DNA of 64,000 bases. Origin: Pseudomonadota bacterium. Its GTDB lineage: Bacteria; Desulfobacterota; Desulfobulbia; Desulfobulbales; SURF-16. The notes below the pieces were generated by a model that saw only the letters and a program-made list of their open reading frames with translations, made no database searches and had not been told where the DNA came from. Location: NCBI GenBank assembly GCA_018816555.1, contig JAHIVT010000059.1:7309-71308 (forward strand), in the 5' to 3' direction. This document shows positions 5,531-41,806 of this stretch, piece by piece. Each line of letters starts with the position of its first letter. Position 1 is the first letter of the stretch. The position numbers and the translations under genes were made by a program.

Positions 5531-6213
5531 CAGGACACCGCTTTCAGGAAGTTCTCGCCGATATTATTCAAGATGAACGTGTAAATGAAAAAAAGCACAC
5601 CAAACAGCACCACAGGTGCAACAAACACCGCGATGGCCGCCGGGGTGAAAATGCTCTGTTTGGCTGTGGAGGCTGGACCGGCACTTTCCACCGGGTAGGC
5701 CTCGGGGAAAAGCTCGGTCCGGTCAAGGGCAGGCAGGCCAACCGAGCTGCCCAGCAGATATTTGAGATTGGATGTTTTAAGCTGGTCCAGCAGCAGATCG
5801 TCACCATCCTGGTGATATCTGCCCTTGAATCCCATGGCCAGGCAGAGATAGTAAATTTCCCTGGCCCCTCGCTGCTGCTGGTCAAGCCGGTTCAGCCGTT
5901 CAAAAAACTCTTCACCGGCATCGGTGGTCTGGTAATACCTGCGCTGCAGGAGTTCCTTCTGCCATTGGGTCCGCCCCTGCCAGGTTGAATTGAGAATCGA
6001 TTCATCGATCCAGGCACAGATGGCAAAGCGCGCCTCATCGTATTCCTCGCTGGAAATCTGCCCCTGGCGCATCATGGTGTCACTTTCCGACAGCAGCCGC
6101 TGCACATCGGTCTGCACCTGACTGTAGGAGAGACTGTTCTGGATGTCACTTTTTAAAAAATAGGCCACATATGCCACCAGTTCGGCAAAGCAATCCCGTA
6201 AACGCATTGTCAC
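5530..6213 (-). CDS. tssL: T6SS membrane complex protein TssL (DotU/ImpK family), with no OmpA-like extension
   Basis: 227 aa. DotU signatures are ARFAICAWIDESILNSTW, GEEFFERL and YYLCLAMGFKGRY, plus one C-terminal TM helix. It overlaps tssK by 4 nt and abuts tssM. Confidence 0.85.
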   Translation of the reverse strand: MTMRLRDCFAELVAYVAYFLKSDIQNSLSYSQVQTDVQRLLSESDTMMRQGQISSEEYDEARFAICAWIDESILNSTWQGRTQWQKELLQRRYYQTTDAGEEFFERLNRLDQQQRGAREIYYLCLAMGFKGRYHQDGDDLLLDQLKTSNLKYLLGSSVGLPALDRTELFPEAYPVESAGPASTAKQSIFTPAAIAVFVAPVVLFGVLFFIYTFILNNIGENFLKAVS

Positions 6214-7604: not shown

Positions 7605-7705
7605 AGTCCCCTTCCATGTATCGGATATTGTAACCCGAAAGCGCGGCATCAGCCGGACATGCGCAAAAACAGGCATGCAGGCTCTGCGCCAGTCAGGCTG
7701 GCTGT

Positions 7706-8260
7706 TTATTGACCGGCAATGCTGGTGATTTTGGTCGGGCCCAATTCAAGATCCACAGTGAGGACGTCCGGTTCCAGCATGCGGAGCGCACCGGGTGTTT
7801 CAGTTGTTTTCTCCACCACGGGAATTTCAAACAGCCGCGTGACATCCTCTTTGCGTACATTGTAGTAACCGGCACCAATGGCCACATACTTGGTGCCCTC
7901 AGCCCGATCCAGGGTATAGGTGACCTTCTGATCAGGCTGGACAATAAAACGTTTGGAGTGGGTGACGCTGGGATCGAACTGGTTACAGGCGAGAAGCTGG
8001 TAGATGCCGTTGATGTCTCCGGTCAACCGGTAAAAGGCGTTGGGATCGCTGAGCTGATAAACACAGAGCAGCAGGGTATGGGGACTGGACTGATAGAGAT
8101 TCAGCTGCGGATCGGAATTGATCTGAATCTTGACCGCATCCTTGCTGTAGGAATACTGCGGTGGCGCAGGCGGTGCCGGGGGTGGCGGCGGCACCTTGGC
8201 GCAGGATGCAAGGAAAAAAAGACACAAAATTCCCCAGGATAGCTTCCAATAATTTTTCAT
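7706..8260 (-). CDS. tssJ: T6SS outer-membrane lipoprotein TssJ (SciN/VasD)
   Basis: 184 aa. It has a signal peptide with the lipobox LASC. The motif SPHTLLLCVYQLSDPNAFYRL resembles the SciN core (P-x-x-V-x-V-Y-Q-L...F). It lies immediately upstream of tssK. Confidence 0.75.
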   Translation of the reverse strand: MKNYWKLSWGILCLFFLASCAKVPPPPPAPPAPPQYSYSKDAVKIQINSDPQLNLYQSSPHTLLLCVYQLSDPNAFYRLTGDINGIYQLLACNQFDPSVTHSKRFIVQPDQKVTYTLDRAEGTKYVAIGAGYYNVRKEDVTRLFEIPVVEKTTETPGALRMLEPDVLTVDLELGPTKITSIAGQ

Positions 8261-24238: not shown

Positions 24239-24685
24239 TCAGGAAAAGGTGGCCATCAGTACCGCCTCTGCTGCCAGCTTGCCATCCACAAAGGCCTTGC
24301 CGGCAATTTTGAAAAGTTTTGCTTTACGTTTCATGATAGAGAGTTCATAGATAATCTGATCACCGGGAACAATCTTTTTCCTGAAACGCACCCCGTCCAT
24401 GCCGGCAAAATAGACCAGATTCTTGCCGATCTTCTCTTTATCGGTGAGGTAGGCCAGGATCGCACCTGCCTGGGCCATTCCCTCCATTACCAGCACGCCT
24501 GGCATTACCGGCTCGGCGGGGAAATGCCCTTGGAAAAAGGGCTCATTAATGGTGACATTTTTTAATGCCTTGATCGCTTCACCGGGTGTCACCGCAAGAA
24601 CCCGGTCAACCAGAATAAAGGGGTAGCGGTGGGGAAGCAGCTTTAAAATTTCATTGATATCATATTGCGTAACGACTTCACTCAT
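24239..24685 (-). CDS. fabZ: 3-hydroxyacyl-ACP dehydratase FabZ
   Basis: Motifs are LLPHRYPFILVDRV and FFQGHFPAEPVMPGVL. I prefer the ATG at 24685, which has a strong SD (AAGGAGACAGGAG). Confidence 0.9.
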   Translation of the reverse strand: MSEVVTQYDINEILKLLPHRYPFILVDRVLAVTPGEAIKALKNVTINEPFFQGHFPAEPVMPGVLVMEGMAQAGAILAYLTDKEKIGKNLVYFAGMDGVRFRKKIVPGDQIIYELSIMKRKAKLFKIAGKAFVDGKLAAEAVLMATFS

Positions 24686-25739
24686 CTCCTGTCTCCTTAT
24701 TTTTTCCATCGCCTGCCAGTTCACTCACCTGCTTGCGCAAGCGGCGAACATCTTTCAACAACTGGGGAATCCGGGAAAAAGCCGTGGCCGCCTGCAGCCA
24801 TTCCTTATAGGCGATAGCCGGGAAACCGGCAACCACCGAGCCCGGCTTGACGTTGCTGTTGATGCCGCTCCGGCCCGCAGCCATGACCCCGTCGCCGACC
24901 TCCACATGATCTCCAACCCCGGATTGGCCGGCCAGCACAACGCCGTTTCCCAGTTTGCAGCTACCGGCAAGTCCGCTTTGAGACACCATCAGGCATCCCT
25001 CTCCAACCTCGGCATTATGGCCGATCTGCACCAGGTTATCGATTTTCGTGCCCTTGCCGATCACCGTGCTGCCGAAGGTGGCCCTGTCAATGCAGGTATT
25101 GGCCCCAATCTCAACATCATCTTCAAGCACCACATTACCGACCTGGGGACGCTTGATATGGATGCCCCGGGAATTGGTGGCATAGCCGAAGCCGTCACTG
25201 CCGATCACCGCGCCGCTGTAAAGAATAACCCGGCGGCCGATTCTGCAGCCTGCCCGCACCACCACGTTTGCCTCAAGAATTGTCCCGTCGCCGATGATCA
25301 CGTCCTCGCCGATAACCACCCCGGACTCGATGACAACGTTTTCCCCAAGGGTGACCCGTCGTCCGACAACCGCCAGTGGGGCGATGGACACCGAAGGAGC
25401 GATACGGCAATCCGCGCCGATGACGGCATGCTTATCGATCCCCGGGGCCGGGAGCGGCCTTTTATAAAACAGGTTATGGATCATGGCGGCAGCCAGGTAG
25501 GGATTCTTCACCCGAATGGCCGGCAGGGCAACTTCCTGTATATTCTGGGGTACAATGACCGCCGAGGCTTTGCTCCGCTCCAGCTGGTCAACATATTTTC
25601 CCTGGGCAATGAAGGTGATCTCCCCGGCAGATGCATTGGCCACATCATTGAAAGCGGCAATCCTCACCCCCGGATCACCAAGCAATTCTCCTTCAACCAA
25701 TGCGGCAAGCTCCGCCAGTGTTCGTGTTTCCTGCGTCAT
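24678..25739 (-). CDS. lpxD: UDP-3-O-acylglucosamine N-acyltransferase LpxD
   Basis: 353 aa with hexapeptide repeats. It has the canonical position upstream of fabZ. Confidence 0.9.
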   Translation of the reverse strand: MTQETRTLAELAALVEGELLGDPGVRIAAFNDVANASAGEITFIAQGKYVDQLERSKASAVIVPQNIQEVALPAIRVKNPYLAAAMIHNLFYKRPLPAPGIDKHAVIGADCRIAPSVSIAPLAVVGRRVTLGENVVIESGVVIGEDVIIGDGTILEANVVVRAGCRIGRRVILYSGAVIGSDGFGYATNSRGIHIKRPQVGNVVLEDDVEIGANTCIDRATFGSTVIGKGTKIDNLVQIGHNAEVGEGCLMVSQSGLAGSCKLGNGVVLAGQSGVGDHVEVGDGVMAAGRSGINSNVKPGSVVAGFPAIAYKEWLQAATAFSRIPQLLKDVRRLRKQVSELAGDGKNKETGDE

Positions 25740-25893
25740 TTTTTTTACTCTGCGTAATAATTACAGTCCGAGATCTGCATTACCTCTTCCGGCATTATGC
25801 ACATCAGACCCCACAATCAATCTTTCCGATCAGGCCATTGAGAGCTTGTCCGTAAATAAGCTGTCAATCTATCAGAAATTTCAGTCTGAACAA

Positions 25894-25939
25894 TAAAAAA
25901 AGACGGGCAGTTTCCCATTGCTGAAAAACGCACCCGTCT
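25894..25939 (-). terminator. Rho-independent terminator downstream of the IHF-like gene
   Basis: On the minus strand, agacggg pairs with cccgtct (25939-25933 and 25907-25901), with extra pairing inside the loop. A run of seven T follows (the A-run 25895-25901 on the plus strand). Confidence 0.6.
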
Positions 25940-25993
25940 GACAGGACAAAACAGGCAGCAAACGTCCTGTTTGGATCTTTACGCAGAATATTT

Positions 25994-26281
25994 TTAGAGA
26001 ATCCCGTTTACTCTGTCGCGCAGGATCCCTGACGGCTTGAAGGTAACCACCTTCCGGGCAGTCAGTATCAACTCCTTGCCGGTCTGGGGGTTACGCCCCC
26101 TTCTGGCATTTTTGTCTTTAATGTTGAACTTGCCGAAGCCGCTTATCAGAAGATCATCACCATTAGCCAGACAATCCTTGCTGATTTTCAGGAATGTTTC
26201 AACAATCGAGGTTGCCTGTGCCTTTGTTAAATTGTGAGTTTGATAAATTTTCTGCACCAAATCAGCCTTAGTCAGGGTCAT
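25994..26281 (-). CDS. ihfA: HU/IHF-family DNA-binding protein, closest by eye to IHF alpha
   Basis: 95 aa. GFGKFNIKDKNARRGRNPQTGKELILTARKVVTFKPS closely parallels E. coli IhfA [37 protein letters not shown]. Confidence 0.7.
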   Translation of the reverse strand: MTLTKADLVQKIYQTHNLTKAQATSIVETFLKISKDCLANGDDLLISGFGKFNIKDKNARRGRNPQTGKELILTARKVVTFKPSGILRDRVNGIL

Positions 26282-26336
26282 GTTGCTAAACCTCCATCAT
26301 TTGTAGAAACATAGGGTTATGGTCAGACATGGTTGT

Positions 26337-27641
<1,305 letters not shown>

Positions 27642-27820
27642 TCAATTTTATTGCTGTGAAAGCGATGCAAATCATCATCTGGTTTCCTGCTGATATCACT
27701 TACACAATTATCAATTCAACTTTCAGATTTGTCAACAACAACTAAGTAATTTTCTTTTTTAAAACAAGCAAATGGCCTGAAAAAATATACGGGCGGGCCT
27801 GGAAGGGGGTGAAAGACATC

Positions 27821-29065
27821 CTAACCGACAACGCTGGCCATCTTGAAAATCGGCAGATACATGGCGATGACAAGTCCGCCGATGAGACCACCGAGAAAAA
27901 CCATCATAAAAGGCTCAATCATGGCAGTCATGTTCTCCACAGCCTGATCGACCTCTTCATCGTAAAAATCCGCAATCTTCTCCAGCATGGTGTCAAGAGC
28001 ACCCGTGGCCTCACCAACATTGATCATCTGCACAACCATACTGGGGAAAACACCTGTCTCTTCCAACGGTTCGGCAATGGAACGTCCCTCAGTAATACTC
28101 TCCGCCACCCTGAATACGGCCTGCTCGATAACCTTGTTGCCCGCTGTTTTGCCGACCACATTCAACGAATCAAGAATGGGAACGCCACTGTGCAGCATGG
28201 TACCCAGGGTTCTGGTGAATTTCGCCACGGCAACCTTACAGATCAGCGGTCCGAACACCGGAGCTTTAAGAAGCATGTAATCGATTTTTTTCCGCCCCTT
28301 TTCCGTGTTATATATTTTCTTGATGGCAATAATGATAAAGGCTATGGCTGCGCCCATGAAGATGAAATTCTTTTTAACAAAATTACTGGCATCGACCACA
28401 ATCTGGGTGGGAGTCGGGAGCGCCGAACCGAAGTCGGCAAACATTTTGGCAAAAACCGGTACGACGAATATCAAAATGACGGCAGTGATGACGAGAGCGA
28501 TACAGAGACAGATCAACGGATAGGTCATGGCTCCCTTGATCTTTTTTTTCAGGGCCATGCTTTTTTCCATAAAGTTGGCAAGACGGTTAAGAATGGTGTC
28601 GAGAATACCGCCGACTTCGCCGGCATCAATCATGTTGCAGTAGAGATTGTCAAACACCTTGGGATGTTTTTTCATGCCATCGGCAAATGTCATACCTGAC
28701 TCGACATCAATGCGGATGTCGGTCAGCATCTTCTTGAAAGTAATATTTTCCTGCTGATTCGCAAGAATATCCAGACTTTGCACCAGAGGAAGACCTGCGT
28801 CAATCATCGTTGACAACTGCCGGGTAAAAATCACCACATCCTTGCCGGTCACCTTCGGCTGAAACATGGCAATGTTTGAGAAAATATCTTTTGGCGCCTC
28901 CTTCAGAACAGTCGGCTTGATTCGAATCTTCTTTAACTGGGAAAGCGCGGCAGCTTCACTGAAAGCCTCGATTTTTCCTTTTCTCTTCTCACCGTATGAA
29001 TTAACTCCCTTCCAGACATAGACAGGCATGAAATTATCCTTTTGTTTCGTTATAGGATGAGACAT
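27821..29065 (-). CDS. pilC: Type IV pilus / type II secretion platform protein (GspF/PilC family)
   Basis: 414 aa with the duplicated T2SS-F architecture and three hydrophobic segments. The start may instead be the ATG at 29029 (MPVYVWKG). Confidence 0.8.
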   Translation of the reverse strand: MSHPITKQKDNFMPVYVWKGVNSYGEKRKGKIEAFSEAAALSQLKKIRIKPTVLKEAPKDIFSNIAMFQPKVTGKDVVIFTRQLSTMIDAGLPLVQSLDILANQQENITFKKMLTDIRIDVESGMTFADGMKKHPKVFDNLYCNMIDAGEVGGILDTILNRLANFMEKSMALKKKIKGAMTYPLICLCIALVITAVILIFVVPVFAKMFADFGSALPTPTQIVVDASNFVKKNFIFMGAAIAFIIIAIKKIYNTEKGRKKIDYMLLKAPVFGPLICKVAVAKFTRTLGTMLHSGVPILDSLNVVGKTAGNKVIEQAVFRVAESITEGRSIAEPLEETGVFPSMVVQMINVGEATGALDTMLEKIADFYDEEVDQAVENMTAMIEPFMMVFLGGLIGGLVIAMYLPIFKMASVVG

Positions 29066-30898: not shown

Positions 30899-31831
30899 AT
30901 GTCAAACGCCAAGAAAACCGCCCCCAGCAAAACAATTATTATCCTTGTTCTTCTCGCCCTTGCCGCTGTTGCAGCATTGCTGATAGTAAATGCCAGCCGG
31001 AAAGCGGACAAAAAAACGGCCATCTCCCTGGAGCAGGAGCAGCAGAAACTCCAGGAAAAGGTAAATATTCTTGACAAGGAACTTGCCGCCCCGGAAGGCT
31101 CCGAATCCGGAGGTCAGAGCGAATCTGCCGGCATGCAGACCGAGTCCGGCGCCGAGGCTGATAACCAGGCAGCAGGCAAAGACATTACCATGGATCCCTG
31201 CAAAACCACCTCAGCCGGAATTGATAGGTTTTTTACCCGGCTGGACCAGGAAGATTACATTATCGATCTCAACCTGGAAGGCGGTTCAAAGGCATACTTC
31301 ATCACGGTCATCAATAAGCTGCTGGCCAACAAGCCCACCATCACCAGGGAAACTGACAATCTGCTGTCCATACTCCAGAATGCCGCCCACTTTTATCGTG
31401 TGCTGGGCGAAAAAAATATCTTTACCCTGAAAAAAATCATGGCCCTGGAAAAAGGTCAATTAGAACCGGTGATGGCTGACTTTTACTCTCTCATCCTGCA
31501 CCGGGATGAATGCCTGAGCGTTCAATATCCGATCCAGTTGCCCATGGAGGATTTGTACAGCTATTCGACCTTCTTTCTCAATACCCTCGGAGGCCAGTCC
31601 TATCTGTTTCGCCGAGAACCGGCTTTCAGGACCCTGGTCAAATATTACTGCGTGCTGGTCATGGACCTGGCCAACATGAAGAACGCCAATCCTCTGGGCA
31701 TTGATATCAGATATCCCATCAACAGCCTGATCGAGGAAATGACTGCGACATCCGGCCTGGAGAATAAGGACAAATACCTGGATAATCTTCTCCAGCTGCA
31801 GGAAAAGTATAAAACACTGTATGGCAACTGA
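30899..31831 (+). CDS. Hypothetical membrane-anchored protein
   Basis: 310 aa. It has an N-terminal TM anchor (IIILVLLALAAVAALLIV), then a coiled/acidic linker. No family recognised. Confidence 0.5.
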   Translation: MSNAKKTAPSKTIIILVLLALAAVAALLIVNASRKADKKTAISLEQEQQKLQEKVNILDKELAAPEGSESGGQSESAGMQTESGAEADNQAAGKDITMDPCKTTSAGIDRFFTRLDQEDYIIDLNLEGGSKAYFITVINKLLANKPTITRETDNLLSILQNAAHFYRVLGEKNIFTLKKIMALEKGQLEPVMADFYSLILHRDECLSVQYPIQLPMEDLYSYSTFFLNTLGGQSYLFRREPAFRTLVKYYCVLVMDLANMKNANPLGIDIRYPINSLIEEMTATSGLENKDKYLDNLLQLQEKYKTLYGN

Positions 31832-31878
31832 AATCTGAGATTCCCTGATTTCCGCCAACCTGGCCATAACATAAAGAA

Positions 31879-31912
31879 AGGGAACTGACCGCACAGTCAG
31901 TTCCCTTTTTTT
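31879..31912. terminator. Rho-independent terminator hairpin between the convergent 310-aa gene and the RyR gene (end of the cassette)
   Basis: The stem pairs agggaactgac (31879-31889) with gtcagttccct (31895-31905), followed by a T-run to 31912 on the plus strand. The minus-strand tail is T/C-rich, so it may act in both directions. Confidence 0.7.
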
Positions 31913-31933: not shown

Positions 31934-32251
31934 TTATTGCCGAAAAATTCCAAGCCTGATCATTTCGGCAATGATCGCCTTGGCACCCTCCACGTCGATT
32001 CGTTTTTCCGATTCCGGGAGGTGCTCATACGGGACGAGATTCGGCTGCAGCTTCCGGGCTTCATCCCGCTCTTCCCCGTAGCGCCACCCCTGGCCAATCC
32101 TCTCCGCCGCCCACCTGTCATGGTTGACCCGGGCGATTGCCTCCAGCGCGTCGCCCATGACCGCTGCCGCACGCTCCAGTTCGTCGCGACCGGCAATCCG
32201 CGGCTCATACTCCCCGAAAGGTGTCGCGATCTTTTTTACTGCCGCGCTCAA
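31934..32251 (-). CDS. Small RyR-domain protein (ryanodine-receptor repeat, Pfam RyR type); fourth gene of the cassette
   Basis: 105 aa. NHDRWAAERIGQGWRYGEERDEARKLQPNLVPYEHLPESEKRIDVEGAKAII matches the RyR pattern (H-x-x-W-x-x-x-R-x-x-x-G-W-x-Y-G...P-x-L-V-P-Y-x-x-L-P-E-x-E-K). A TTG start at 32251 overlaps the CHAT gene stop (TTGA), and an SD AGGAGA lies 7 nt upstream. Confidence 0.7.
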   Translation of the reverse strand: MSAAVKKIATPFGEYEPRIAGRDELERAAAVMGDALEAIARVNHDRWAAERIGQGWRYGEERDEARKLQPNLVPYEHLPESEKRIDVEGAKAIIAEMIRLGIFRQ

Positions 32252-34215
32252 GGTCTCTCCTTTTGGGGGGATACATTACTGTCACCGAGCGCGGCAAGTG
32301 CGGCCCTGGCAAAATCATCCCATTCATTTTGTTTCCAGATATCGACATAGCGGCGGAACTGCCGCATGGTTGATTGCACGGGAAACTCCTTGGGACCACA
32401 AGTTTCCAGGATCTCGTTGCAGCAACGGATAATTTCCTTCTTAGCCTCCTCCGCACTGTACTGCTCGCCTCCATAAAGAGCGCCCAGCATTTCCAGTTCC
32501 GCCAGCGTTCCGCAGGCCCAGGCCCGCTCGCTCCCAACCGCATTGAGCAACCTCCAGTGGCTGATTTGCCGAGCTGTGCTCCACCAGTGACCATGTTTTT
32601 TTGCCAATTCGGTCATGCCGACTTTTTCAGCCCTCATTAAGACCGCCAGCATTGACAGATACTGGGTGATAACCCAGTTGTTGGAGGGCTCGGCCACCAT
32701 GGCCTGCCTGTATAACAGGCAGCATTTCTGATAGGCTTCCAGTTTTTCCTTCTCCTTGCCTGCGATCTGCTCATAGGCGATGCCGATCCGTTTTTCACTG
32801 GCAGCGCTCACCCCCAGTCGTTCAGCCAGTTCCCTGTCGGAAGATTGCGCCTCAGGTTCTTCCCGCCATGCTTGCAGTTCCTCACGGATGGAGGCACAGA
32901 GACCATCCATCTCCCCGGTCACCGTTTTCTCATCCTGGCCCTCAAACTCTCCGATCTTGAGCAGATCATCGATCCGCGCGAATTTGGTTTCGATCCGCCC
33001 GCGGGTCTGCTTTTCGCGAAAATCGCTGACCTGATTTTCAAAATCCCAGGGCACGGTTGCATAGGTCACGATACTCGCCCAGTCATGCGTTTCCGGGCAA
33101 GAGGTGCGCAGACGCTGCCGCACTTCGTGGAGGACGCAGCGGGGATCGGCCCCCTTGAGCAGACGTTTGTACAGTACTTCAGTAAAGATGGTCGAGGAAC
33201 GCATCCACAGGGGAAACTGGGAGGCAAAGACCCAGGGGATGCCGGCGGCGTGCAGCTCGTGGGCTATGCTGCCGCCGGGGGTGAGCACGGAGCGCACATT
33301 GCCGGAATCGCAGGTTGCCAGCGAGAGCACAGTGGGCCGATGACGGGCGGCGCAGTCCAAAGCGCGGTCCGTGGTAAGGGCAATGGCGAGCCGCTCGCCG
33401 TCAACCACATCGACCTCTGCCGGGTTCGTGCTGTCGCACAACGCAAGCCCGTACTGCTGGTCGCCGGCATGATCATAGGGGGCGCCGTGGGCCAGGATAT
33501 GGACATGGGTGTACTCGGTATCCATACAGGCCTGCCGGATCTGCTCAAGCGTTGCTTCCGGCAGCACGGTGAGTATATTTTTTACCTCGGCCAGCCGCGC
33601 TTCCTCACTGTTCTTGATTTTTATCCAGGGGTCAATAGCGCGGCGCAGGGCAACCAGATGCCGTTCGGCAGGCACCACCGCGAGTCCGCCAGGGGAGGCA
33701 AAGATAAACAGGATGCGGGGCGGACGATTCCATTCCACCGGCAGGGGCCGGCCGCGCCGCACCTCCCTGGTCAGGGTGATGGGTGTCTTTGATTGCAGAA
33801 AGAGCGGCGAACCGGATCCGGGAAAACCTGCCGGGGCAATGGCCGCCTCAAAAGGCAAAAGAGCCAGTTCAAAACCGGAAAGCGACAGCCGCAGATGCAC
33901 AAACTTTCCCTTGGCCGCCTGGACGCTGCCGAGTTCGGCAAGCAGGCCGGGAACCTGGCCGAACATCTGACCGATGGTCTCGCCCAGTTCGCGCAGCTCG
34001 GCCTCCCGCTGACCTGCGGGCACAGGTGTTCCCTCGGTGTAATAGCGGAGCCGTTCCAGGCGGATGAGCAACTGCCGCTGTTCAAAGGGCAGGCGTACGG
34101 TCACCGGTCCGTCGGCACCGCAGAGGACGAGGTAAGGGGTCAGCGGTGACAGGAGCTGGTTGTGCGCCGGGCCGGGTCGCAGGATTTCCAGTTTGACGTT
34201 GTGGATCTCAGACAT
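32248..34215 (-). CDS. CHAT-domain (caspase-like) protease with a C-terminal helical-repeat region; third gene of the cassette
   Basis: The His/Cys dyad context is THVHILAHGAP (His codon at about 33487-33489) and VLSLATCDSG (Cys codon 33310-33312). An upstream ELALLPFE motif is typical of CHAT N-regions. I prefer the ATG at 34215 (MSEIHNVKLEIL) with SD GAGG, 4 nt after the stop of the upstream gene; the track ORF extends to 34362. Confidence 0.8.
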   Translation of the reverse strand: MSEIHNVKLEILRPGPAHNQLLSPLTPYLVLCGADGPVTVRLPFEQRQLLIRLERLRYYTEGTPVPAGQREAELRELGETIGQMFGQVPGLLAELGSVQAAKGKFVHLRLSLSGFELALLPFEAAIAPAGFPGSGSPLFLQSKTPITLTREVRRGRPLPVEWNRPPRILFIFASPGGLAVVPAERHLVALRRAIDPWIKIKNSEEARLAEVKNILTVLPEATLEQIRQACMDTEYTHVHILAHGAPYDHAGDQQYGLALCDSTNPAEVDVVDGERLAIALTTDRALDCAARHRPTVLSLATCDSGNVRSVLTPGGSIAHELHAAGIPWVFASQFPLWMRSSTIFTEVLYKRLLKGADPRCVLHEVRQRLRTSCPETHDWASIVTYATVPWDFENQVSDFREKQTRGRIETKFARIDDLLKIGEFEGQDEKTVTGEMDGLCASIREELQAWREEPEAQSSDRELAERLGVSAASEKRIGIAYEQIAGKEKEKLEAYQKCCLLYRQAMVAEPSNNWVITQYLSMLAVLMRAEKVGMTELAKKHGHWWSTARQISHWRLLNAVGSERAWACGTLAELEMLGALYGGEQYSAEEAKKEIIRCCNEILETCGPKEFPVQSTMRQFRRYVDIWKQNEWDDFARAALAALGDSNVSPQKERP

Positions 34216-34219
34216 GTCT

Positions 34220-35713
34220 TTACCTCGTGAACTGTTGAATGATCGTGCGGGTGACGGGATCGGTTCCTGCAATGTGGGCCAGTTCGCCGACCACTGTGCC
34301 GTCTTCGTCGGCCCTGATGCAGACCGCGCTCTGTTGCCGCAGGACAAAGGATTGCCGGTCAAAGACCGCCTGATCGATATCCTTCATCCGGCCTTTGACA
34401 AGCAGCTCATACACCGGCTTGAAGGTTTCTTCGCTGGCAAGCATGGCCTCGGTGAAACGGAGCAGGCGGATCCAGGTGCCGCAATTAAAATAAAAACGGC
34501 CGCCGCCCAGATCGATGGCGCGTTCAAGATGGGTATGACCGGTGACGATGAAATGGATACCCTGCCCCACCGAGTCGACCATCTCCTTGCAGGCGTCGTC
34601 CCGGTCCGCTATCTCGAAAGTCTTGTCACCCTTGAGCCAGTCTTTCAGTGCCCGGCGCAGGGCCTCGATCTTGCTGACGCCGCTAAACCAGCCGGTGAGC
34701 CGGTCCCAGAGATACTGGCCGGTACCGAGGGTTTCGTCCTGGGGATCAGTGACGGCGCTGCCGGTCTTGTATTGCTTTTCCGCCGCCAGCAGCAGGGCGT
34801 CGGCTGAGGGACGGCTGGCCCCGGCACCGCTGCGCAGTCCCTCCATGAGGTTTGGTCCCAGCAGACCCTCCACAGCCACGGGCCGTGCCTGCTTTTTGGC
34901 CGGGGCGGTGAAACCCTCGGCCGAAAGCCGCTGGTCCACCTCCCTGCTGCCCTCCACCTTCTCACCGATAACCGGGATGAGGCGGTTGATCTTTTCGAGC
35001 TGGCCGGGGTCAAGGGCCAGGAGCACGCCGACAGCGGCCGTCATCTCCGGTTTTAAAAGGTCAATCCAGGGATATTGCCCCTTCACCTTGTTCATGACGT
35101 CCTTGACCATCTTAGTGCCGGCGTTGGGCTCCCATTCGCCAGCCTTAAGCGATCGGCCGCTGTTGAGCCGCCGGGCCGCCTTGGCGAGGTCCTCGTAACG
35201 GACATAGTTCCAGGCGTCCACTTCGTTGCCGTGGGTGCAGAACACCCGGGCGCCGCCCACCAGGCAGGAGTAGCCGGCCCCCATGGTGGAAAACTCGATG
35301 CGGGCCCGGGCCAGGAGATCAGCACCGGCGAGCCGTTCGACCACGGCGCGCTGTACCACCGGAAAAGACAGCTCAAGGTCGTGGTTGCCAAGGGCGATGA
35401 CCAGGGTGCGTTTGTCAATTTTCACAAAATCCGCCAAGGCTTCCCAGATGGGGGCAAAAGCAGGATCTGCCATGATCCGTTTGATCACGGTCTCGGCATT
35501 GTCCACGGCGATGTAGCCGCCGCTCTCCTCGGCCAGGGTGTCGATGACATCACCGTTTAAGACCAGGGCCACTTGCCCGTCCGGCTTTTGTGCCGCCACC
35601 CAGCGGATGAATCCCGCCAGTTTCCCGGTCTCCCGGAGAATCTGAAAACCGGGTTCACCTCCCATGTGGAGGTCGGAGATGACATGAACTTCGTCGAATT
35701 GGGGTAAGGGCAT
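34220..35713 (-). CDS. Calcineurin-like metallophosphoesterase; second gene of the cassette
   Basis: All five MPE motifs occur in order: VISDLHMGG (DxH), NGDVID (GD), LGNHD (GNHD), CTHGNE (H) and VTGHTH (GHxH). A roughly 180-aa insertion precedes the last motif. An SD AAGGAG lies 8 nt upstream of the ATG at 35713. Confidence 0.8.
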   Translation of the reverse strand: MPLPQFDEVHVISDLHMGGEPGFQILRETGKLAGFIRWVAAQKPDGQVALVLNGDVIDTLAEESGGYIAVDNAETVIKRIMADPAFAPIWEALADFVKIDKRTLVIALGNHDLELSFPVVQRAVVERLAGADLLARARIEFSTMGAGYSCLVGGARVFCTHGNEVDAWNYVRYEDLAKAARRLNSGRSLKAGEWEPNAGTKMVKDVMNKVKGQYPWIDLLKPEMTAAVGVLLALDPGQLEKINRLIPVIGEKVEGSREVDQRLSAEGFTAPAKKQARPVAVEGLLGPNLMEGLRSGAGASRPSADALLLAAEKQYKTGSAVTDPQDETLGTGQYLWDRLTGWFSGVSKIEALRRALKDWLKGDKTFEIADRDDACKEMVDSVGQGIHFIVTGHTHLERAIDLGGGRFYFNCGTWIRLLRFTEAMLASEETFKPVYELLVKGRMKDIDQAVFDRQSFVLRQQSAVCIRADEDGTVVGELAHIAGTDPVTRTIIQQFTR

Positions 35714-35737
35714 TGCTGTTCTCCTTGGGTTAGATAG

Positions 35738-38686
35738 TTATGGTGTCTGAATGGTGGCCTTGGCCGGGTCGGCGACGGCCAGCAATTTTTCAAGTTCCTG
35801 GACTTCCCGGTCCCGACGGTGGTAGCCGGTTTCCGCGACCAGTTTTTTGACCTTAACTAGGTGTTCGCGGGCGGAGGGCAAGTCGTTTTCGGCCAGCAGC
35901 AGTCGGCAGCTCTCGAGATGATAATCGGTGAGGAAGAGACGCATACCGCAGCGTTCGGCGATTTCAAAAACTTCGTCCAGGTCGCGGCGGGCAGAGCCAA
36001 ATTGCCCCTGCTCCCGGCAGAAGAAGGCCCGGTCCAGCAGGCCGCGGGGAAGATAATCCTGTCTCCCTGCCTTACGCAGGAAATCAACGGCCACGGCCAG
36101 ATGGCTGACGGCTTCGGCCGTCTCGTCCAGCCGCTGGCAGGCCCGGCATAGGGTGAGATGGTCCAGGCCGATGTCGAGGGGCCAATTTTCAGCCTTAATC
36201 CATTCAAGAGTTTTCTCCGCCCGCTCCCTAGCCTCGGCCGGCCGGTCGAGTTCAAGGAGCAGGTCACAGTAGCGATAGCCCTGCAAGGAGTAGAGGAAAG
36301 GGTACTGGGGCTGGCACTCCCGCTGCATGGCCTCGGCCTGGCGGAACAGCTCCTCCGCTTCGGCCAACCGGCCGTCCTGATGGAGGGAGCCAGCACGGGT
36401 GGTGCGGGTGGCCAAGTGCCAAAAGGCATCACCGCTCTGGTCGGCCAGCTCCACCGACCTTTTCCCATACTCCATAGCCCGGTCCAGGTCACCCGTGACG
36501 AGGAAAAGTTCGCTGAGGTTGCCGGCAATGATGGTCGCATCTTGCCAATTTTCCTGCTGGACCCGCATTTCCAAACCGGCCCGCATCGGCCCGGCCGCCT
36601 CGTCCAACCGACCCAGGGCTCGGAGGCTGAAACCGGCCCAACTCAGAAGCGCCGCCTGATCAAATTCGCGAAGTCCGGTCGCGGGCCGGTCCCAAAGCTT
36701 CTCGAAAAAGTTAGCCAAGGCGCCCAGATCGGAGCCGAATGCGCCGAGTTTGCTCGTGCAGTAATGGTCGGTCATCCTTATGAGTCGTTGCCAGTAAACC
36801 TCCTCCAGCGTCTCCTGCTGCCGGCCGGCCCGGCAGCCATGGGCGCAGGCGTAAAAAAGCGGAGCCATTTCCTCGATGGTGTCCGGCAGTTCCCTGGCAA
36901 TGCCCTTGTAATGCTCATAAAGCCGCAGGTTGCCCTCCTGCCAGGCTGAGGGGAAATGCTTTTGAAGAAGGTCGGCCATATGCTCCCGCACCAGGGGGTG
37001 GCAGTCCAGGTCGCCGGGGCGATGGCTGCTTGTCGGGGCCAGGAGACCGAAGCGCCGCAGTCGACTGAGGCACTCATGGCGGTCTCCTTTTTCCACTGCC
37101 ATGATGCGGCCGGTCAACTCTGGGATGGCCGGCGGGGTGAGGAGTGCTGCCAGGGCCTCCCTGTCGGCCGGGCGATCAAAGAGGCCAAGGAGCCGCAGAT
37201 ACTCGACCTCCGGTGAATCCCCTAAAAGACCGACCAGGGCGGCCATAACCCGCCGGGGTTGGCGACCATGCTCCTCGGGGAGGTCCAGGTCAGGGATATC
37301 GGCCGCGTGTTGGATGTGGTGTTCGGGGATCTCATGGAGATAGGCGGCCAGGAGCTTGACGGCCAGGGCGTGGTTGCCAAAGGCTCGCGAAGCCTCCTCC
37401 AGCTCCAGGTCCGTGCCCCGCACCCCGCCCACGCGCAAAAGCGCTCGGCCGGCTGCGGCGGAAATCTGCTCCAGGTTGCGTGCCTGAACGGTTTGCGGGA
37501 AACGACGGAGATCAGCCACCTCTTCCCGACTGGTGATGAGGCAGAGGCCGGGATTATTCCTGGCCAGTTCCGTGACCAGGGCAGCAAGGCCGGGGTCCTT
37601 GATGCGGCCCTTGTCAAAATCATGCTCGGCCTGCAACGGCTCCAGGCCGTCCAGCACCAGCAGCGTCCGCTGCTGCTTGATGAGGCCTGCCAGCCGCTGG
37701 CCCTTGTCCCAGGGAGAGCCGGTAATAGGATTCGGGTCGCCGAACCAGGCCAGGGCCCCGGCAATGAAGCGGTCCGCCGAGGTGACCCGCTCCCCGCTCC
37801 CCTGGCTGTAAAAAGACCAGCCAAAGACTCGGGCCGCACCGCGATAGTTGTCCGCGGCCATCTCGGCAAGCCAACGGTTGACCAAAGTGGATTTGCCCAC
37901 CCCACCCCAGGCAACAAAAGAGATAATATTGGTTTTGCCCTGCTCCCAGGCACTGTCCAGTAACTCAAGCTCCGCCTCCCGACCAAAGAGTTCTGCCCCG
38001 GTTATAGGCAGACGGGAGATCTCCACCGGAGGCAGCAATAATTCCAAGAGCGAGGTTGGCGTACTTGATTGGCTGAGTGCTTCTTCCGAAAAGTCAATGT
38101 TGAGCAAGAAATCCTGTTCTGTGGGAATGTCCTTATCAGAGAGGCCCGGCAGTGACGGTCCCATTACATTGCCAAGGATCTCATCAATCAACAGATTTTC
38201 AAAAACGAAAGCCTCATGCTCCGGGACGGTCTGCTGCGCCTGTTCCGCCACCTTGATAGCAAAATCCGCGAGCTGCTGTTTCCGCTTTGTTTTACCCCTA
38301 ATGGCAGCAAGACACTTGTTGCCGGTGGGAAACATCTGGATGCCTTTGAGCCAGCGGATGGCCTGCCACGGGCAGGGCTCAGCCAGTAGGGGCAGGATGG
38401 TCAGGTTTTCAGCCGCCCGCCGTTTAAGCAGGGCCGGCACCTCCTCCTTGATGATAAAATCCGAGGCCAGAAAATTTTTGGTGATGAGGCAGACCGCTAC
38501 TCGGGCCCCCTCCACCGCCTCTTTAATCTCCGGGTACCAGTCAGCGCCGGTGTTGATCTTGCGGTCATGCCAGAGCAGCAGATCGCCTTGCTGCTCAAAT
38601 GCCTTGAGATGGGGGAGAAGCTGATTTTTCCACTCCTCATCCAGGTGGCTATAACTGATGAACACCGTGGGCCTGGCAGTACTCAT
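35738..38686 (-). CDS. TIR - NB-ARC (STAND NTPase) - TPR protein; first gene of the cassette
   Basis: The N-terminal TIR is TVFISYSHLDEEW...ARVAVCLITKNFLASDFIIKEE. Walker A is AWGGVGKSTL (DNA 37886-37907). Walker B is NB-ARC-like, TLLVLDGLE, followed by CLITSRE. About 550 aa of C-terminal TPR-like repeats follow. The start is either the ATG at 38686 or the TTG at 38746. Confidence 0.85.
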   Translation of the reverse strand: MSTARPTVFISYSHLDEEWKNQLLPHLKAFEQQGDLLLWHDRKINTGADWYPEIKEAVEGARVAVCLITKNFLASDFIIKEEVPALLKRRAAENLTILPLLAEPCPWQAIRWLKGIQMFPTGNKCLAAIRGKTKRKQQLADFAIKVAEQAQQTVPEHEAFVFENLLIDEILGNVMGPSLPGLSDKDIPTEQDFLLNIDFSEEALSQSSTPTSLLELLLPPVEISRLPITGAELFGREAELELLDSAWEQGKTNIISFVAWGGVGKSTLVNRWLAEMAADNYRGAARVFGWSFYSQGSGERVTSADRFIAGALAWFGDPNPITGSPWDKGQRLAGLIKQQRTLLVLDGLEPLQAEHDFDKGRIKDPGLAALVTELARNNPGLCLITSREEVADLRRFPQTVQARNLEQISAAAGRALLRVGGVRGTDLELEEASRAFGNHALAVKLLAAYLHEIPEHHIQHAADIPDLDLPEEHGRQPRRVMAALVGLLGDSPEVEYLRLLGLFDRPADREALAALLTPPAIPELTGRIMAVEKGDRHECLSRLRRFGLLAPTSSHRPGDLDCHPLVREHMADLLQKHFPSAWQEGNLRLYEHYKGIARELPDTIEEMAPLFYACAHGCRAGRQQETLEEVYWQRLIRMTDHYCTSKLGAFGSDLGALANFFEKLWDRPATGLREFDQAALLSWAGFSLRALGRLDEAAGPMRAGLEMRVQQENWQDATIIAGNLSELFLVTGDLDRAMEYGKRSVELADQSGDAFWHLATRTTRAGSLHQDGRLAEAEELFRQAEAMQRECQPQYPFLYSLQGYRYCDLLLELDRPAEARERAEKTLEWIKAENWPLDIGLDHLTLCRACQRLDETAEAVSHLAVAVDFLRKAGRQDYLPRGLLDRAFFCREQGQFGSARRDLDEVFEIAERCGMRLFLTDYHLESCRLLLAENDLPSAREHLVKVKKLVAETGYHRRDREVQELEKLLAVADPAKATIQTP

Positions 38687-38746
38687 CCGATTCTCTTTCC
38701 GGGTTGGCTGTTTAGCGGGAAATGGGGATGTTGACGTCTTCCCCAA

Positions 38747-39018
38747 AAATGAATGATTGCTCAGAAAAAAACCCGCAATTAAAGAATTTGCAAGAGAAAA
38801 CTGCTATGAGATGGCAGGAAAAAGAAAAAAAAGGAAGAAAGCGGATGGGGATGTAGGGGCACCCCTTGTGGGTGCCCTATCCCAGGCGGATACCGAATTG
38901 GCCATCATGCAGTACGCGAACTCTAACTGCCTGGACAGTGGCAAACAACGGGTAGCCCGCTCCCAGGGCACCCACAAGGGGTGCCCCTACAGGAATGACA
39001 ATTGGCAATCATTCATTT
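38747..39018. repeat. MITE-like 272-bp element bounded by 14-bp perfect terminal inverted repeats and containing a pair of inverted palindromic modules
   Basis: The terminal inverted repeats are aaatgaatgattgc (38747-38760) and gcaatcattcattt (39005-39018). The internal module tgtaggggcaccccttgtgggtgccct (38862-38888) recurs as its reverse complement at 38964-38990, and each copy is itself a hairpin (gggcaccc/gggtgccc). Confidence 0.7.
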
Positions 39019-39063
39019 GTACCCCGTGTCATTCCCATGCAATCGTCCCGCCTAGATACAAGG

Positions 39064-39085
39064 GGGGCGGTTCGCGAACCGCCCC
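39064..39085. repeat. Perfect 22-bp GC-rich palindrome
   Basis: The sequence is ggggcggttcgcgaaccgcccc. It lies about 40 nt downstream of the BI-1 gene stop on the minus strand, with no T-tail. Confidence 0.7.
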
Positions 39086-39123
39086 TACTAATTCCCCGTG
39101 GCAAAAGCCAGGCCGGGCGACAA

Positions 39124-41041: not shown

Positions 41042-41806
41042 TCACGTCTCTGAAAGAATTCTAAACATATCACCCGGTTCCGGCAGAAAAACATGGAGCC
41101 CGCCAGTTCCGTCCAGCCCGGCAACTTTTTTCTTGGCGGTTTCTCTGCAGGTTCGCTCCAGATGTACCAGGGCAAGATGTTTCCCCCCGGCGCGGCTGGC
41201 AAATTCGAGGCATTTCATGATATTGCCGTGGTTTTCCACCTCCCTGTCCAGCCTGAAGGCCTCGTGCACGATCAAATCACATCCTGCTGCCAGAGTTTCC
41301 GTTTCCCTGGTCGGCCTGCCATCCCCGCTGTAAAAAATCCGGTGGCTGCCGTCATCAATGCGTATGGACAGACAACGCTGGGAATGGATATTTTCCGCCG
41401 AGCTCCAGTTCGTGCCGGCAATTTCCCGGGCCTGTCCCGGTTCTATTTCCACAAAATCAAGGTGGTACATGAGCCGCGGCAGAAAGCCGGGGTAGGCAAG
41501 CTCCATGGCCGCCGTAATCTTTTCCAGGATGCCCTGCTGCCCGGCAATAACCAGCTTTTTCCTCCGGCCCATTTCCCAGAATCTGAGGAGCAACAGCGGC
41601 ATGCCGAAAAAATGATCGCCATGAAAGTGAGAAATCCAGACAGCGTCCAGTTCGTCCGGATCGCTGCTCAGACCAAAATAGAGATGGGGGGTGGTAAAAC
41701 CGCAGTCCAGCAGGAACCGCTGCCCCTTTCCCGCTGTCACATGAAGCGAGGTATTGGGACAGTGTTGATCGCAGGCTTCGCCAACCCCTAAAAAGTGTAT
41801 TTTCAT
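41042..41806 (-). CDS. MBL-fold metallo-hydrolase (RNase Z-like)
   Basis: 254 aa. The HxHxDH motif is ISHFHGDHF and the N-terminus is MKIHFLGVGEA. Confidence 0.75.
   Translation of the reverse strand: MKIHFLGVGEACDQHCPNTSLHVTAGKGQRFLLDCGFTTPHLYFGLSSDPDELDAVWISHFHGDHFFGMPLLLLRFWEMGRRKKLVIAGQQGILEKITAAMELAYPGFLPRLMYHLDFVEIEPGQAREIAGTNWSSAENIHSQRCLSIRIDDGSHRIFYSGDGRPTRETETLAAGCDLIVHEAFRLDREVENHGNIMKCLEFASRAGGKHLALVHLERTCRETAKKKVAGLDGTGGLHVFLPEPGDMFRILSET

Follow-up and report, generated by a model that had tools for sequence, protein, structure and literature searches.

The cassette and its genes

We analyzed a cassette of four genes on the minus strand of a 64,000-nucleotide (nt) stretch of bacterial DNA, contig JAHIVT010000059.1 of assembly GCA_018816555.1 (positions 7,309 to 71,308), hereafter called the window. 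The genes encode, in this order, a protein combining TIR, STAND NTPase, and TPR parts (g1), a metallophosphoesterase (MPE; g2), a CHAT protease (g3), and a small RyR-domain protein (g4) (Table 1). The original prediction, made from the sequence alone, had taken them for one candidate antiphage system. We found instead that the cassette is a lineage-specific composite, in which g1 is a further member of the well-known antiviral STAND kind and MPE-CHAT represents a recognized but experimentally untouched class of protease-effector modules.

The arrangement of the locus agrees with what had been predicted. The four co-oriented open reading frames (ORFs) appear in the ORF list, which takes g1 further 5′, to a TTG at 38746, and independent gene calls on the source 80-kb metagenome contig (ENA ERZ27247128 k141_802784) gave the same four products. 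Direct reading of the sequence confirmed the junctions and the Shine-Dalgarno motifs: the TAA of g1 is followed by 24 nt with AAGGAG inside and then by an ATG; g2 ends with a TAA followed by AGAC and the ATG of g3, with GAGG upstream; and g3 and g4 share a TTGA stop/start overlap, with AGGAGA before it. The hairpin expected to close the unit was also found, as a bidirectional terminator that serves a convergent gene (30899 to 31831) as well, and a terminator search across the cassette found none of comparable strength between g1 and g4. The GC content of the four genes is uniform (0.60 to 0.61) and unlike that of the flanks (0.45 to 0.54), so that g1 to g4 form one compositionally distinct island. 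The cassette is far beyond chance, and each of the four proteins has hundreds to thousands of full-length homologs.

Table 1. Positions of the cassette genes, domains, motifs, and associated features in the window
Feature	Position	Strand	Basis or remark
g1, TIR-STAND NTPase-TPR protein, 982 amino acids (aa) from ATG	35738-38686	-	ORF list, Pfam
TIR domain of g1	~38336-38665	-	Pfam TIR_2
Conserved Glu pair E81/E82 of TIR	38441-38446	-	Family alignment
Walker A GGVGKST of g1	37886-37906	-	Family alignment
Walker B LLVLDG of g1	37646-37663	-	Family alignment
TPR part of g1, putative sensor	~35741-36829	-	Pfam TPR_MalT, TPR_12
g2, metallophosphoesterase (MPE), 497 aa	34220-35713	-	ORF list, Pfam
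MPE motif SDLHMGG	35657-35677	-	Invariant metal-ligand motif
MPE motif NGDVID	35540-35557	-	Invariant metal-ligand motif
MPE motif GNHD	35378-35389	-	Invariant metal-ligand motif
MPE motif THGNE	35222-35236	-	Invariant metal-ligand motif
MPE motif GHTHLE	34523-34540	-	Invariant metal-ligand motif
MPE insertion, aa 255-343, predicted disordered	34685-34951	-	pLDDT <50; flanks >85
Short motif DQRLS of MPE insertion	34922-34936	-	Family alignment
Short motif LLGPN of MPE insertion	34850-34864	-	Family alignment
Short motif TLGTG of MPE insertion	34718-34732	-	Family alignment
g3, CHAT protease with C-terminal TPR-like superhelix, 655 aa from ATG	32248-34215	-	ORF list, Pfam, AF2
CHAT domain	~33064-33990	-	Pfam
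Catalytic His243 of CHAT	33487-33489	-	Invariant
Catalytic Cys302 of CHAT	33310-33312	-	Invariant
TPR(-S)-like part of g3	~32281-33042	-	AF2, Foldseek
g4, single-repeat RyR-domain protein, 105 aa, TTG start overlapping g3 stop	31934-32251	-	ORF list, Pfam
RyR domain of g4	~31946-32149	-	Pfam
TPFGEYEP N-terminal motif, g4 aa 10-17	32201-32224	-	Conserved
H44 of g4	32120-32122	-	Invariant in RyR alignment
W47 of g4	32111-32113	-	Invariant in RyR alignment
Q69 of g4	within 32042-32053	-	Replaces relatives' His
D86 of g4	31994-31996	-	Invariant in RyR alignment
Intrinsic terminator closing the cassette, hairpin then T-run	31877-31908	-	Bidirectional
Leader between Bax1-I-family gene and g1, 437 nt	38687-39123	-	Sequence, repeat and fold analysis

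MPE and CHAT form the evolutionary unit

We then looked for the MPE in 185,579 species genomes (one per species). The scan returned 127 tblastn-confirmed loci, which is a lower bound, and the best 80 of these species loci were analyzed. A g3 homolog follows the MPE gene, adjacent and co-directional, in all 80, the projected spacing being -5 to +97 nt. Measured against the window copies, the identities of the two proteins rise and fall together (Pearson, 0.92; Spearman, 0.74), and the adjacency holds even at 34 to 38% identity, on a Methylobacterium plasmid of 37.5 kb and on a megaplasmid of Paraburkholderia. Whereas MPE and CHAT are always paired, a g1-type gene was present in a single one of these 80 loci (L003; locus numbers designate the homologous genomic stretches compared with the window) and an RyR gene in six. 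We therefore consider the MPE-CHAT pair to be the evolutionary unit. As the distant relatives of g1 also lack a CHAT neighbor (0/8 contexts, see below), the proposal that the four genes co-occur as one system did not hold; failure to co-occur in other genomes had been named beforehand as evidence against it, and this is largely what we observed.

The MPE is rare, and the distribution is patchy, with plasmids included. The MPE family comprised 1,154 matches, mostly full length at ≥59% identity and in very different phyla, and g3 had more than 1,800 CHAT homologs. MPE-CHAT is widespread, in many phyla and on plasmids, and has apparently never been tested.

The genes around the pair differ between clades. 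Methylobacter, Rheinheimera, Shewanella, and Azotobacter carry an operon encoding a GMC oxidoreductase, a patatin, an acetoacetate-decarboxylase (ADC)-like protein, and an alpha/beta-hydrolase; the neighbor is RNase E in Nitrosomonas, and PspA/YqiJ/flotillin genes are found in Desulfobacteria. ORF calling in these high-GC loci was greedy and crude, and it served only to choose neighbors for Pfam scans.

In 9/80 loci, a search with an iterated TIR profile, confirmed by Pfam, found TIR proteins of architectures unrelated to that of g1 at a distance of no more than about 4 kb from MPE-CHAT. In a Noviherbaspirillum metagenome-assembled genome (MAG) (L050; DASPMC010000026.1, 6091 to 14643), a 1,127-aa LRR-Roc-COR-TIR protein (a ROCO-type GTPase) is encoded directly upstream of the pair, a TIR-GGDEF protein on the opposite strand directly downstream, and yet another TIR protein, the third, about 8.5 kb upstream. 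In a Methylococcaceae MAG (L073; JADKAL010000001.1, 10001 to 18816), the genes directly after the pair, on the same strand, encode a SIR2_2-TIR protein and an nSTAND1 NTPase that bears a large WD40 propeller. Other examples are a divergent SIR2-TIR gene upstream of the pair (L077), TIR-FGE-sulfatase (L019), TIR-Pterin_4a (L065), and ThsB-like TIRs (L058, L062, and L068). Eleven TIR ORFs fell within 4 kb of the pair and two beyond, although more distal sequence was searched, which argues for a specific proximity. A split DUF4062 ORF lies directly upstream of the pair in L004. MPE-CHAT thus combines with varied sensors (TIR-STAND-TPR, LRR-Roc-COR-TIR, and SIR2-TIR plus nSTAND1-WD40) and also occurs alone.

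On the Methylobacterium plasmid (L107; NZ_CP099612.1, record 24287 to 28376), MPE-CHAT adjoins a convergent cluster that may be another cluster of the defense type. It encodes an unrelated second metallophosphoesterase with wHTH-Calcineurin_assc, an ORC-CDC6-like protein, a hypothetical protein, and a Dam methylase.

Effectors are exchanged between a retained TIR-STAND and RyR

The full cassette is limited to one Thermodesulfobacteriota-like lineage and to one chromosomal site. It occurs on five contigs, in full in the window, L003, and L092 (a 342-kb contig) and partially in L085 and L091; the g1/MPE junction is tight and free of a terminator in the window, L085, and L092. At the same site, a sister genome (L083/L084; GCA_018897105.1) keeps g1 (81 to 88% amino acid identity) and RyR (83%). 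L083 and the window are homologous at the nucleotide level from the flank across g1 up to window position 35776 and again from 32264 onward, 13 nt ahead of the RyR start, and the intervening 3.5 kb with MPE and CHAT (32265 to 35775) is replaced by the gene of a single 1,809-aa protein. This fusion contains DUF7379/alpha-beta-hydrolase/LCAT-like, CHAT, and TPR-S domains. Pairwise comparison detected no similarity between it and g3, and homology of the two beyond the domain level was therefore rejected. Relatives of the fusion are also found near MPE-CHAT pairs in L058 and L062. Modules are thus exchanged as units at the cassette site. With TIR-STAND and RyR kept on either side of it, the swap in L083 is a natural experiment that shows which parts are interchangeable.

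Sequence and structure analysis of the MPE and CHAT proteins

We analyzed the four proteins with Pfam, PADLOC, and NCBIfam. Pfam supported the predicted TIR, TPR, Metallophos, CHAT, and RyR domains; the NB-ARC label was not supported (see below). The predicted absence of a named system was upheld as well, since PADLOC gave domain-level matches only and NCBIfam nothing relevant. The catalytic and nucleotide-binding motifs of the TIR, STAND, MPE, CHAT, and RyR parts, which had been described as intact, are conserved in the respective families.

The g2 protein matches Metallophos (PF00149) at 9.4e-9 and 36.4 bits, against a cutoff of 21.5, and the five metal motifs (DxH, GD, GNHD, H, and GHxH) are invariant in 53 homologs. 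The AlphaFold2 (AF2) model built on this 53-sequence alignment has a confident core and a mean predicted local distance difference test (pLDDT) score of 75.5. A long insertion, predicted to be disordered, interrupts the core and is variable apart from the invariant pairs R262-L263, L285-G286, and L329-G330. This combination of a confident core with invariant ligands and a disordered insertion with invariant RL, LG, and LG pairs makes the MPE resemble a pro-enzyme, and we propose the insertion as a candidate gating segment cleaved by a protease. Foldseek returned weak matches, the best being LpxH, a UDP-sugar pyrophosphatase (E ∼4e-5), followed by purple acid phosphatases and the ADPRibase-Mn-like 2nxf. 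No match was obtained with the family profile against PDB sequences, and PADLOC and NCBIfam returned nothing for the MPE.

CHAT (PF12770) was assigned to g3 at 1.2e-23 and 84.5 bits. The H243/C302 dyad is invariant in 53 homologs, and C302 is the cysteine that the prediction had picked as catalytic. The AF2 model (pLDDT 82.5) folds the last ∼250 residues into a TPR-like superhelix, and Pfam TPR-S (PF20308) was found in some g3 homologs. The best Foldseek matches were SAVED-CHAT (8tl0), Csx29, and separase, plus TPR repeats, and PADLOC gave a domain-level match only, as part of SAVED_CHAT. The two models would suit a protease whose target is a flexible linker in the enzyme encoded next to it. 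No recognized signal-binding domain (such as SLOG, Macro, or the ThsE C-terminal domain) was found in g2 or g3 with Pfam, PADLOC, or NCBIfam. From its domain content, g4, which is separate from g2 and g3, is the sole candidate signal binder.

g1 belongs to a large, mostly solitary family

The g1 protein matches TIR_2 (8.6e-14), TPR_MalT (3.1e-13), and TPR_12. NACHT scored 3.7e-5 and 24.1 bits, under the gathering cutoff of 26.7, and AAA_16 (6e-4) was also under threshold. The prediction had labeled the NTPase NB-ARC, and we rejected this label, as Pfam found no match to PF00931 in g1; a precomputed PF00931 match exists for 1 of 120 g1 homologs, and the match to an NB-ARC in the PDB has an E value of 0.58. 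We retain the designation STAND-type NTPase. E81/E82 of the TIR domain, Walker A, and Walker B are conserved at ≥95% among 119 family members. PADLOC reported a ThsB-like TIR (1.6e-18, at the domain level) and a marginal TPR match and nothing else, and none of its Avs/bNACHT models matched.

The full-length family has more than 3,500 matches, with ∼50% identity even in ANME/Methanosarcinales archaea, Anaerolineae, and Planctomycetota. We inspected eight contexts of homologs at 50 to 61% identity: in seven the gene stands alone among unrelated genes, and in the eighth its neighbor is a SEFIR/TIR-STAND paralog; none has a CHAT module. Members with ≥71% identity are all at one chromosomal site, and a CHAT module comes after each of them. 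In comparisons of close relatives, identity is ∼65% in the TPR part versus 83 to 88% in the NTPase, which fits the pattern expected of a fast-evolving sensor.

A host-encoded RyR protein

Pfam identified RyR (PF02026) in g4 at 7.3e-18 and 65 bits, against a cutoff of 27.4, and the comparison with an RyR1 repeat construct gave an E value of 1.4e-28; PADLOC and NCBIfam returned nothing for this protein. Phage RyR-domain proteins (RyDEP) bind or hydrolyze 2′/3′ cyclic ADP-ribose (cADPR) via His75, Trp78, His100, and Asp117 (PMC13232231), and H44, W47, and D86 of g4 have the same spacing as H75, W78, and D117. The window, L091, and L092, each also with a TTG start, have Gln at the K-L-H-P position, where L003 to L007 and L083 have His. 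As the Gln is conserved within the sublineage, it is neither a sequencing error nor a recent defect. Judging from the spacing and the RyR1 alignment, the K-x-H-P His would correspond to the phosphate-binding His100 of RyDEP. RyR proteins associated with CHAT have an N-terminal extension of ∼35 aa that the Pfam domain does not cover; it contains an invariant TPFG-Y-P motif and could be a docking or cleavage site.

A metagenome scan with a narrow RyR alignment returned 12 loci, so the following neighborhood statistics are anecdotal. All five close homologs from metagenomes lie directly after a CHAT gene, and MPE-CHAT-RyR without g1 occurs in L004, L005, L007, L094, and L095. Elsewhere, a small RyR gene overlaps the stop of the gene for a 723-aa TIR protein (L099; Ga0075418_10000353, 5755 to 8246) or the start of a DUF4231/SLATT_1 membrane-protein gene (L096; Ga0335085_10009748, 3068 to 4527). 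In L097 (AUXO016373209.1, 175 to 5529), overlapping co-directional genes encode a TIR-methyltransferase (434 aa), an RCK-domain protein (806 aa), an RyR protein (99 aa), and a TIR protein (441 aa), making this operon a candidate for a different TIR-rich system that contains RyR. On the Priestia aryabhattai plasmid NZ_CP128553.1 (L108, 59026 to 67235), a Pycsar-like operon encoding a PycTM effector, two hypothetical proteins, and an adenylate/guanylate cyclase ends with a 94-aa RyR gene; a second operon, which codes for a 743-aa TIR protein, is convergent with it.

The binding or cleavage of cADPR immune signals by RyR domains was shown in 2026 for phage proteins only, whereas the genes described here are host encoded. 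Their occurrence in operons with TIR, CHAT, SLATT, and cyclase genes points to a role in nucleotide immune signaling on the host side. Among the papers searched, none joined RyR with TIR and SLATT. The association of a host RyR gene with TIR and CHAT genes is the freshest lead from this locus and makes the idea directly testable.

Leader and flanking genes

The prediction of a repeat-laden leader of ∼430 bp was correct as to length and inverted repeats: a perfect 27-nt inverted repeat (38852 to 38878/38965 to 38991) is nested in a 14-nt inverted repeat, the RNA fold has a z-score of -6.3, and the terminator of the Bax1-I gene lies inside the leader (39064 to 39085). The repeats belong, in fact, to a REPIN-like insertion of ∼190 bp (∼38830 to 39020), whose arms are inverted REP-type units made of GTAG and a GC hairpin. 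The window and L083/L084 (L083, 7696 to 7833) have this insertion, the alignable leaders of L003, L085, and L092 lack it, and no further copy of the unit exists within the 64-kb window. We rejected the repeats as a regulatory feature of the system, since the insertion is missing from three of the five syntenic loci. What is kept in all five is a stretch of ∼110 nt directly 5′ of g1 (within 38690 to 38830), e.g., TCCTGCCATCTNATAGCAGTTTTCTCTTGCAAATT.TTTAATTGCGGGTTTTTTTCTGA, which may be the native promoter or operator; a sigma-70 consensus scan found no match in it.

The conserved flanks consist of genes for a metallo-β-lactamase (MBL)-fold protein, AI-2E, and Bax1-I on one side and for a 310-aa protein and a response regulator on the other. 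The MBL-fold gene (41042 to 41806, minus strand) has precomputed matches to Pfam Anti-Pycsar_Apyc1/Lactamase_B. As it stands in the conserved flank of all syntenic loci whatever the content of the island, it is probably a host housekeeping hydrolase outside the system. No genome with an empty site that would define the insertion boundaries of the island was found.

Proposed mechanism and alternatives

We propose that the locus is a horizontally acquired composite island of three separable modules with a conflict, most likely antiphage, function, and we give this reading, with the mechanism that follows, a probability of about 0.5. In this scheme, g1 would be a STAND pattern-recognition protein whose fast-diverging C-terminal TPR part binds the trigger, and NTP-dependent oligomerization would gather the N-terminal TIR domains and lead to NAD+ cleavage. 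The g2 and g3 proteins would act as a co-evolving protease-effector pair, to which CHAT brings its own TPR-S-like domain. Activated CHAT would cut the disordered MPE insertion of ∼90 residues, perhaps at the two invariant L-G motifs, and the latent LpxH-like MPE would thereby become toxic, arresting the cell as a nucleotide pyrophosphatase or phosphodiesterase. The small and probably dimeric g4 would bind an ADP-ribose (ADPR)-derived product of the TIR domain and either pass the signal on to CHAT or act as a buffer that sets the activation threshold. The three genes after g1 had been described as co-translated partner modules that could be effectors or regulators. That description stands insofar as MPE plus CHAT belongs to a known class of protease-effector modules and cADPR isomers are documented ligands of RyR domains, and it needs refining as outlined here.

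The steps of this scheme differ in how far the evidence carries them. A role in conflict or defense is likely, given the module types, the patchy distribution that includes plasmids, the atypical composition, and the gene company. That the MPE is a zymogen activated by CHAT is an even bet. Some functional link between the TIR and the CHAT modules is plausible, because the swap in L083 is clean and other TIR proteins recur beside MPE-CHAT. Coupling of g1 to CHAT in particular would be in line with the short spacing at their junction, the persistence of g1 and RyR on either side of exchanged effectors, the recurrent TIR neighbors, and, by analogy, type IV Thoeris. We regard coupling through a nucleotide that g4 senses as doubtful.

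Several observations weigh against the proposed scheme. Neither TIR nor RyR lies within 10 kb of the pair in about 70 of the 80 MPE-CHAT loci, so that MPE-CHAT must be able to act without g1 and g4, and many pairs adjoin housekeeping or membrane-stress genes. The g1 family is solitary or paired with a paralog in 8/8 distant contexts, and its TIR could thus be a self-sufficient NADase effector rather than a signal generator. In L003, ∼230 nt, not 24, separate g1 from the MPE gene. SLOG, Macro, SAVED, and CARF signal-binding domains were not detected in g3, and the RyR protein of the window type has Gln at the His that is conserved in the K-x-H-P motif of RyR repeats. The substrate class of the MPE is a guess, since its fold matches are weak (TM scores of 0.27 to 0.5).

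Much of this evidence would also suit two independent systems lying side by side and exchanging no information, i.e., a self-sufficient TIR-STAND-TPR protein that depletes NAD+, as in Avs/bNACHT, and an MPE-CHAT(-RyR) module that senses via the TPR-S domain of CHAT. Such independence would account for the distant g1 homologs, all eight of which do without CHAT, for the 79 of 80 species loci in which MPE-CHAT stands without g1, for the five loci with MPE-CHAT-RyR and no g1, and for the gap in L003. Defense genes, moreover, commonly cluster in islands. Side-by-side residence fits less well with the 24-nt junction, with its Shine-Dalgarno motif and lack of a terminator, in the window, L085, and L092, with the shared GC content of the four genes, and with L083, where the CHAT effector alone was swapped while g1 and RyR stayed put. 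Nor does it explain why TIR genes of many architectures concentrate beside MPE-CHAT elsewhere. We regard two independent systems as somewhat less likely than the proposed scheme. At the other extreme stands a complete pathway gated by STAND and similar to Thoeris, in which trigger-bound TIR-STAND would make an ADPR-derived messenger, RyR would be its dedicated receptor or set the threshold, and CHAT would unleash the MPE pro-toxin; small bacterial RyR proteins would then be unrecognized immune signal binders and the source of phage RyDEP. This is rather unlikely in our view, and its wider claim is that RyR proteins bind nucleotide signals in immune operons based on TIR, SLATT, and cyclases.

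The roles within the pair could also be reversed, with CHAT as the terminal, promiscuous effector and the MPE (with or without RyR) as a regulator that hydrolyzes the nucleotide signal or binds to it and holds the protease inactive below a threshold. Type IV Thoeris has a caspase-like effector that a TIR product switches on and that cuts numerous proteins (10.1101/2024.10.24.620036), RyR proteins of phages break down cADPR signals or sequester them (PMC13232231), and the MPE fold includes nucleotide pyrophosphatases, with LpxH and ADPRibase-Mn-like proteins among the closest folds. The 82/82 pairing and the co-variation of MPE and CHAT even where no TIR is nearby suit a substrate and its protease better than signal turnover; the long disordered insertion with its invariant short motifs resembles cleavable gating linkers, and the partner swapped in at L083 is an alpha/beta hydrolase, a zymogen class shown experimentally (PMC12642450). 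A reversal of roles thus seems improbable to us. We consider it slightly more improbable still that MPE-CHAT is not antiviral and serves in regulated proteolysis or programmed cell death under envelope or metabolic stress, with TIR-STAND as an incidental neighbor. The recurrence across several genera of PspA/YqiJ/flotillin or patatin/GMC-oxidoreductase/acetoacetate-decarboxylase-like/alpha-beta-hydrolase neighborhoods, the lack of a PADLOC match for the MPE, and the stress-response roles raised for some protease-effector modules (PMC12642450) would agree with such a function. Against it speak the patchy distribution, which suggests horizontal gene transfer and includes plasmids, the composition of the island, atypical for the genome, and the clustering of the pair with TIR, SIR2-TIR, nSTAND1-WD40, ROCO-TIR, and further CHAT fusions of the sort that conflict systems typically contain.

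Under the composite reading that we prefer, interest in the locus is sustained by the association of a host RyR gene with TIR and CHAT genes and by the candidate MPE zymogen. The cassette also bears on the question of whether STAND-fused TIR domains are only NAD+ depleters or signalers too.

Comparison with known systems

We found no description of the composite with a host RyR gene in the literature searched, and no tool names it. Searches on CHAT plus metallophosphoesterase and on TPR-S plus caspase returned nothing relevant, and we found no mention of MPE, CHAT, or RyR in the Thoeris survey or the STAND survey.

Like phage RyDEP (PMC13232231), g4 is a small, probably dimeric protein with the same Pfam domain and with His, Trp, and Asp at identical spacing. 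Unlike RyDEP, it is host encoded and lies in a putative defense operon rather than in a phage counterdefense locus, it has a conserved N-terminal extension (TPFGEYEP), and in the sublineage of the window Gln replaces the presumed counterpart of the phosphate-binding His. For g3, the closest solved folds are those of Csx29, the TPR-CHAT protein of the type III-E Craspase, and of the type III-B SAVED-CHAT. These proteases cut a specific partner (Csx30 and PCaspase, respectively) after an upstream sensor has fired, and g3 resembles them as a CHAT protease with a presumed partner. It differs from the CRISPR proteases in having no CRISPR context and no SAVED domain, in the position of its TPR part, which is C-terminal to CHAT and not N-terminal as in Csx29, and in its presumed substrate, which is an enzyme, whereas Csx29 and SAVED-CHAT act on a regulator or a second protease.

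Antiviral STAND proteins comprise at least 90 defense-associated families (PMC13581612). As in Avs/bNACHT proteins, g1 has a tripartite build (TIR effector, STAND NTPase, and TPR-like sensor), its sensor diverges faster, and its family is mostly single-gene. In contrast to them, no Avs or bNACHT model of PADLOC fits g1, NACHT stays below threshold, and, in the cassette lineage, g1 is followed by a protease-effector module in the same orientation. Type IV Thoeris consists of a TIR protein and the caspase-like ThsE, with N7-cADPR as the signal (10.1101/2024.10.24.620036), and it is a precedent for a TIR-made nucleotide switching on a caspase-like protease. The cassette likewise has a TIR gene and a protease of the caspase superfamily in one locus, and the catalytic Glu expected of a Thoeris TIR is present (TIR_2 at 8.6e-14; E81/E82 in ≥95%). 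Co-occurrence of the TIR with the effector, expected as well, was not found (1/80 MPE-CHAT loci with a g1-type gene; 0/8 distant g1 contexts with CHAT). TIR genes of other types are near the pair in 8 further loci. Unlike in Thoeris, the TIR is the N terminus of a 982-aa STAND-TPR receptor, a class left out of the Thoeris survey, the protease is a CHAT protein with a TPR domain, and the locus has a dedicated MPE partner and an RyR gene.

Protease-effector zymogen modules offer further parallels. Experiments on a module of an alpha/beta-hydrolase and a protease revealed a zymogen that double cleavage activates, and an MPE-like enzyme is listed there, uncharacterized, among the protease-associated effectors (PMC12642450). 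Tuck et al. described the same zymogen logic for MBL pro-nucleases, including caspase-nuclease "canu" loci (PMC12799240); MBL nuclease modules with a trypsin-like or caspase protease ("canu") are add-ons to Hachiman, AVAST, and Lamassu (PMC12799240; PMC12642450). As in these modules, the effector gene of MPE-CHAT lies immediately upstream of the protease gene and co-evolves with it, the effector has a flexible insertion with conserved short motifs (known here from the predicted structure and the alignment), and the module recombines with diverse sensors, STAND included; at the cassette site itself, an alpha/beta-hydrolase-CHAT protein stands in for MPE-CHAT in L083. Unlike in these modules, the effector fold is a calcineurin-like metallophosphoesterase nearest to LpxH and not an MBL nuclease, the protease is a CHAT protein with a C-terminal TPR-S-like domain and not a trypsin-like or MALT1-like protease with an Ig domain, the protease is not fused to the sensor, and an RyR accessory gene is present. 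With MPE-CHAT, a phosphoesterase would join the few immune pro-enzymes known to be activated by proteases.

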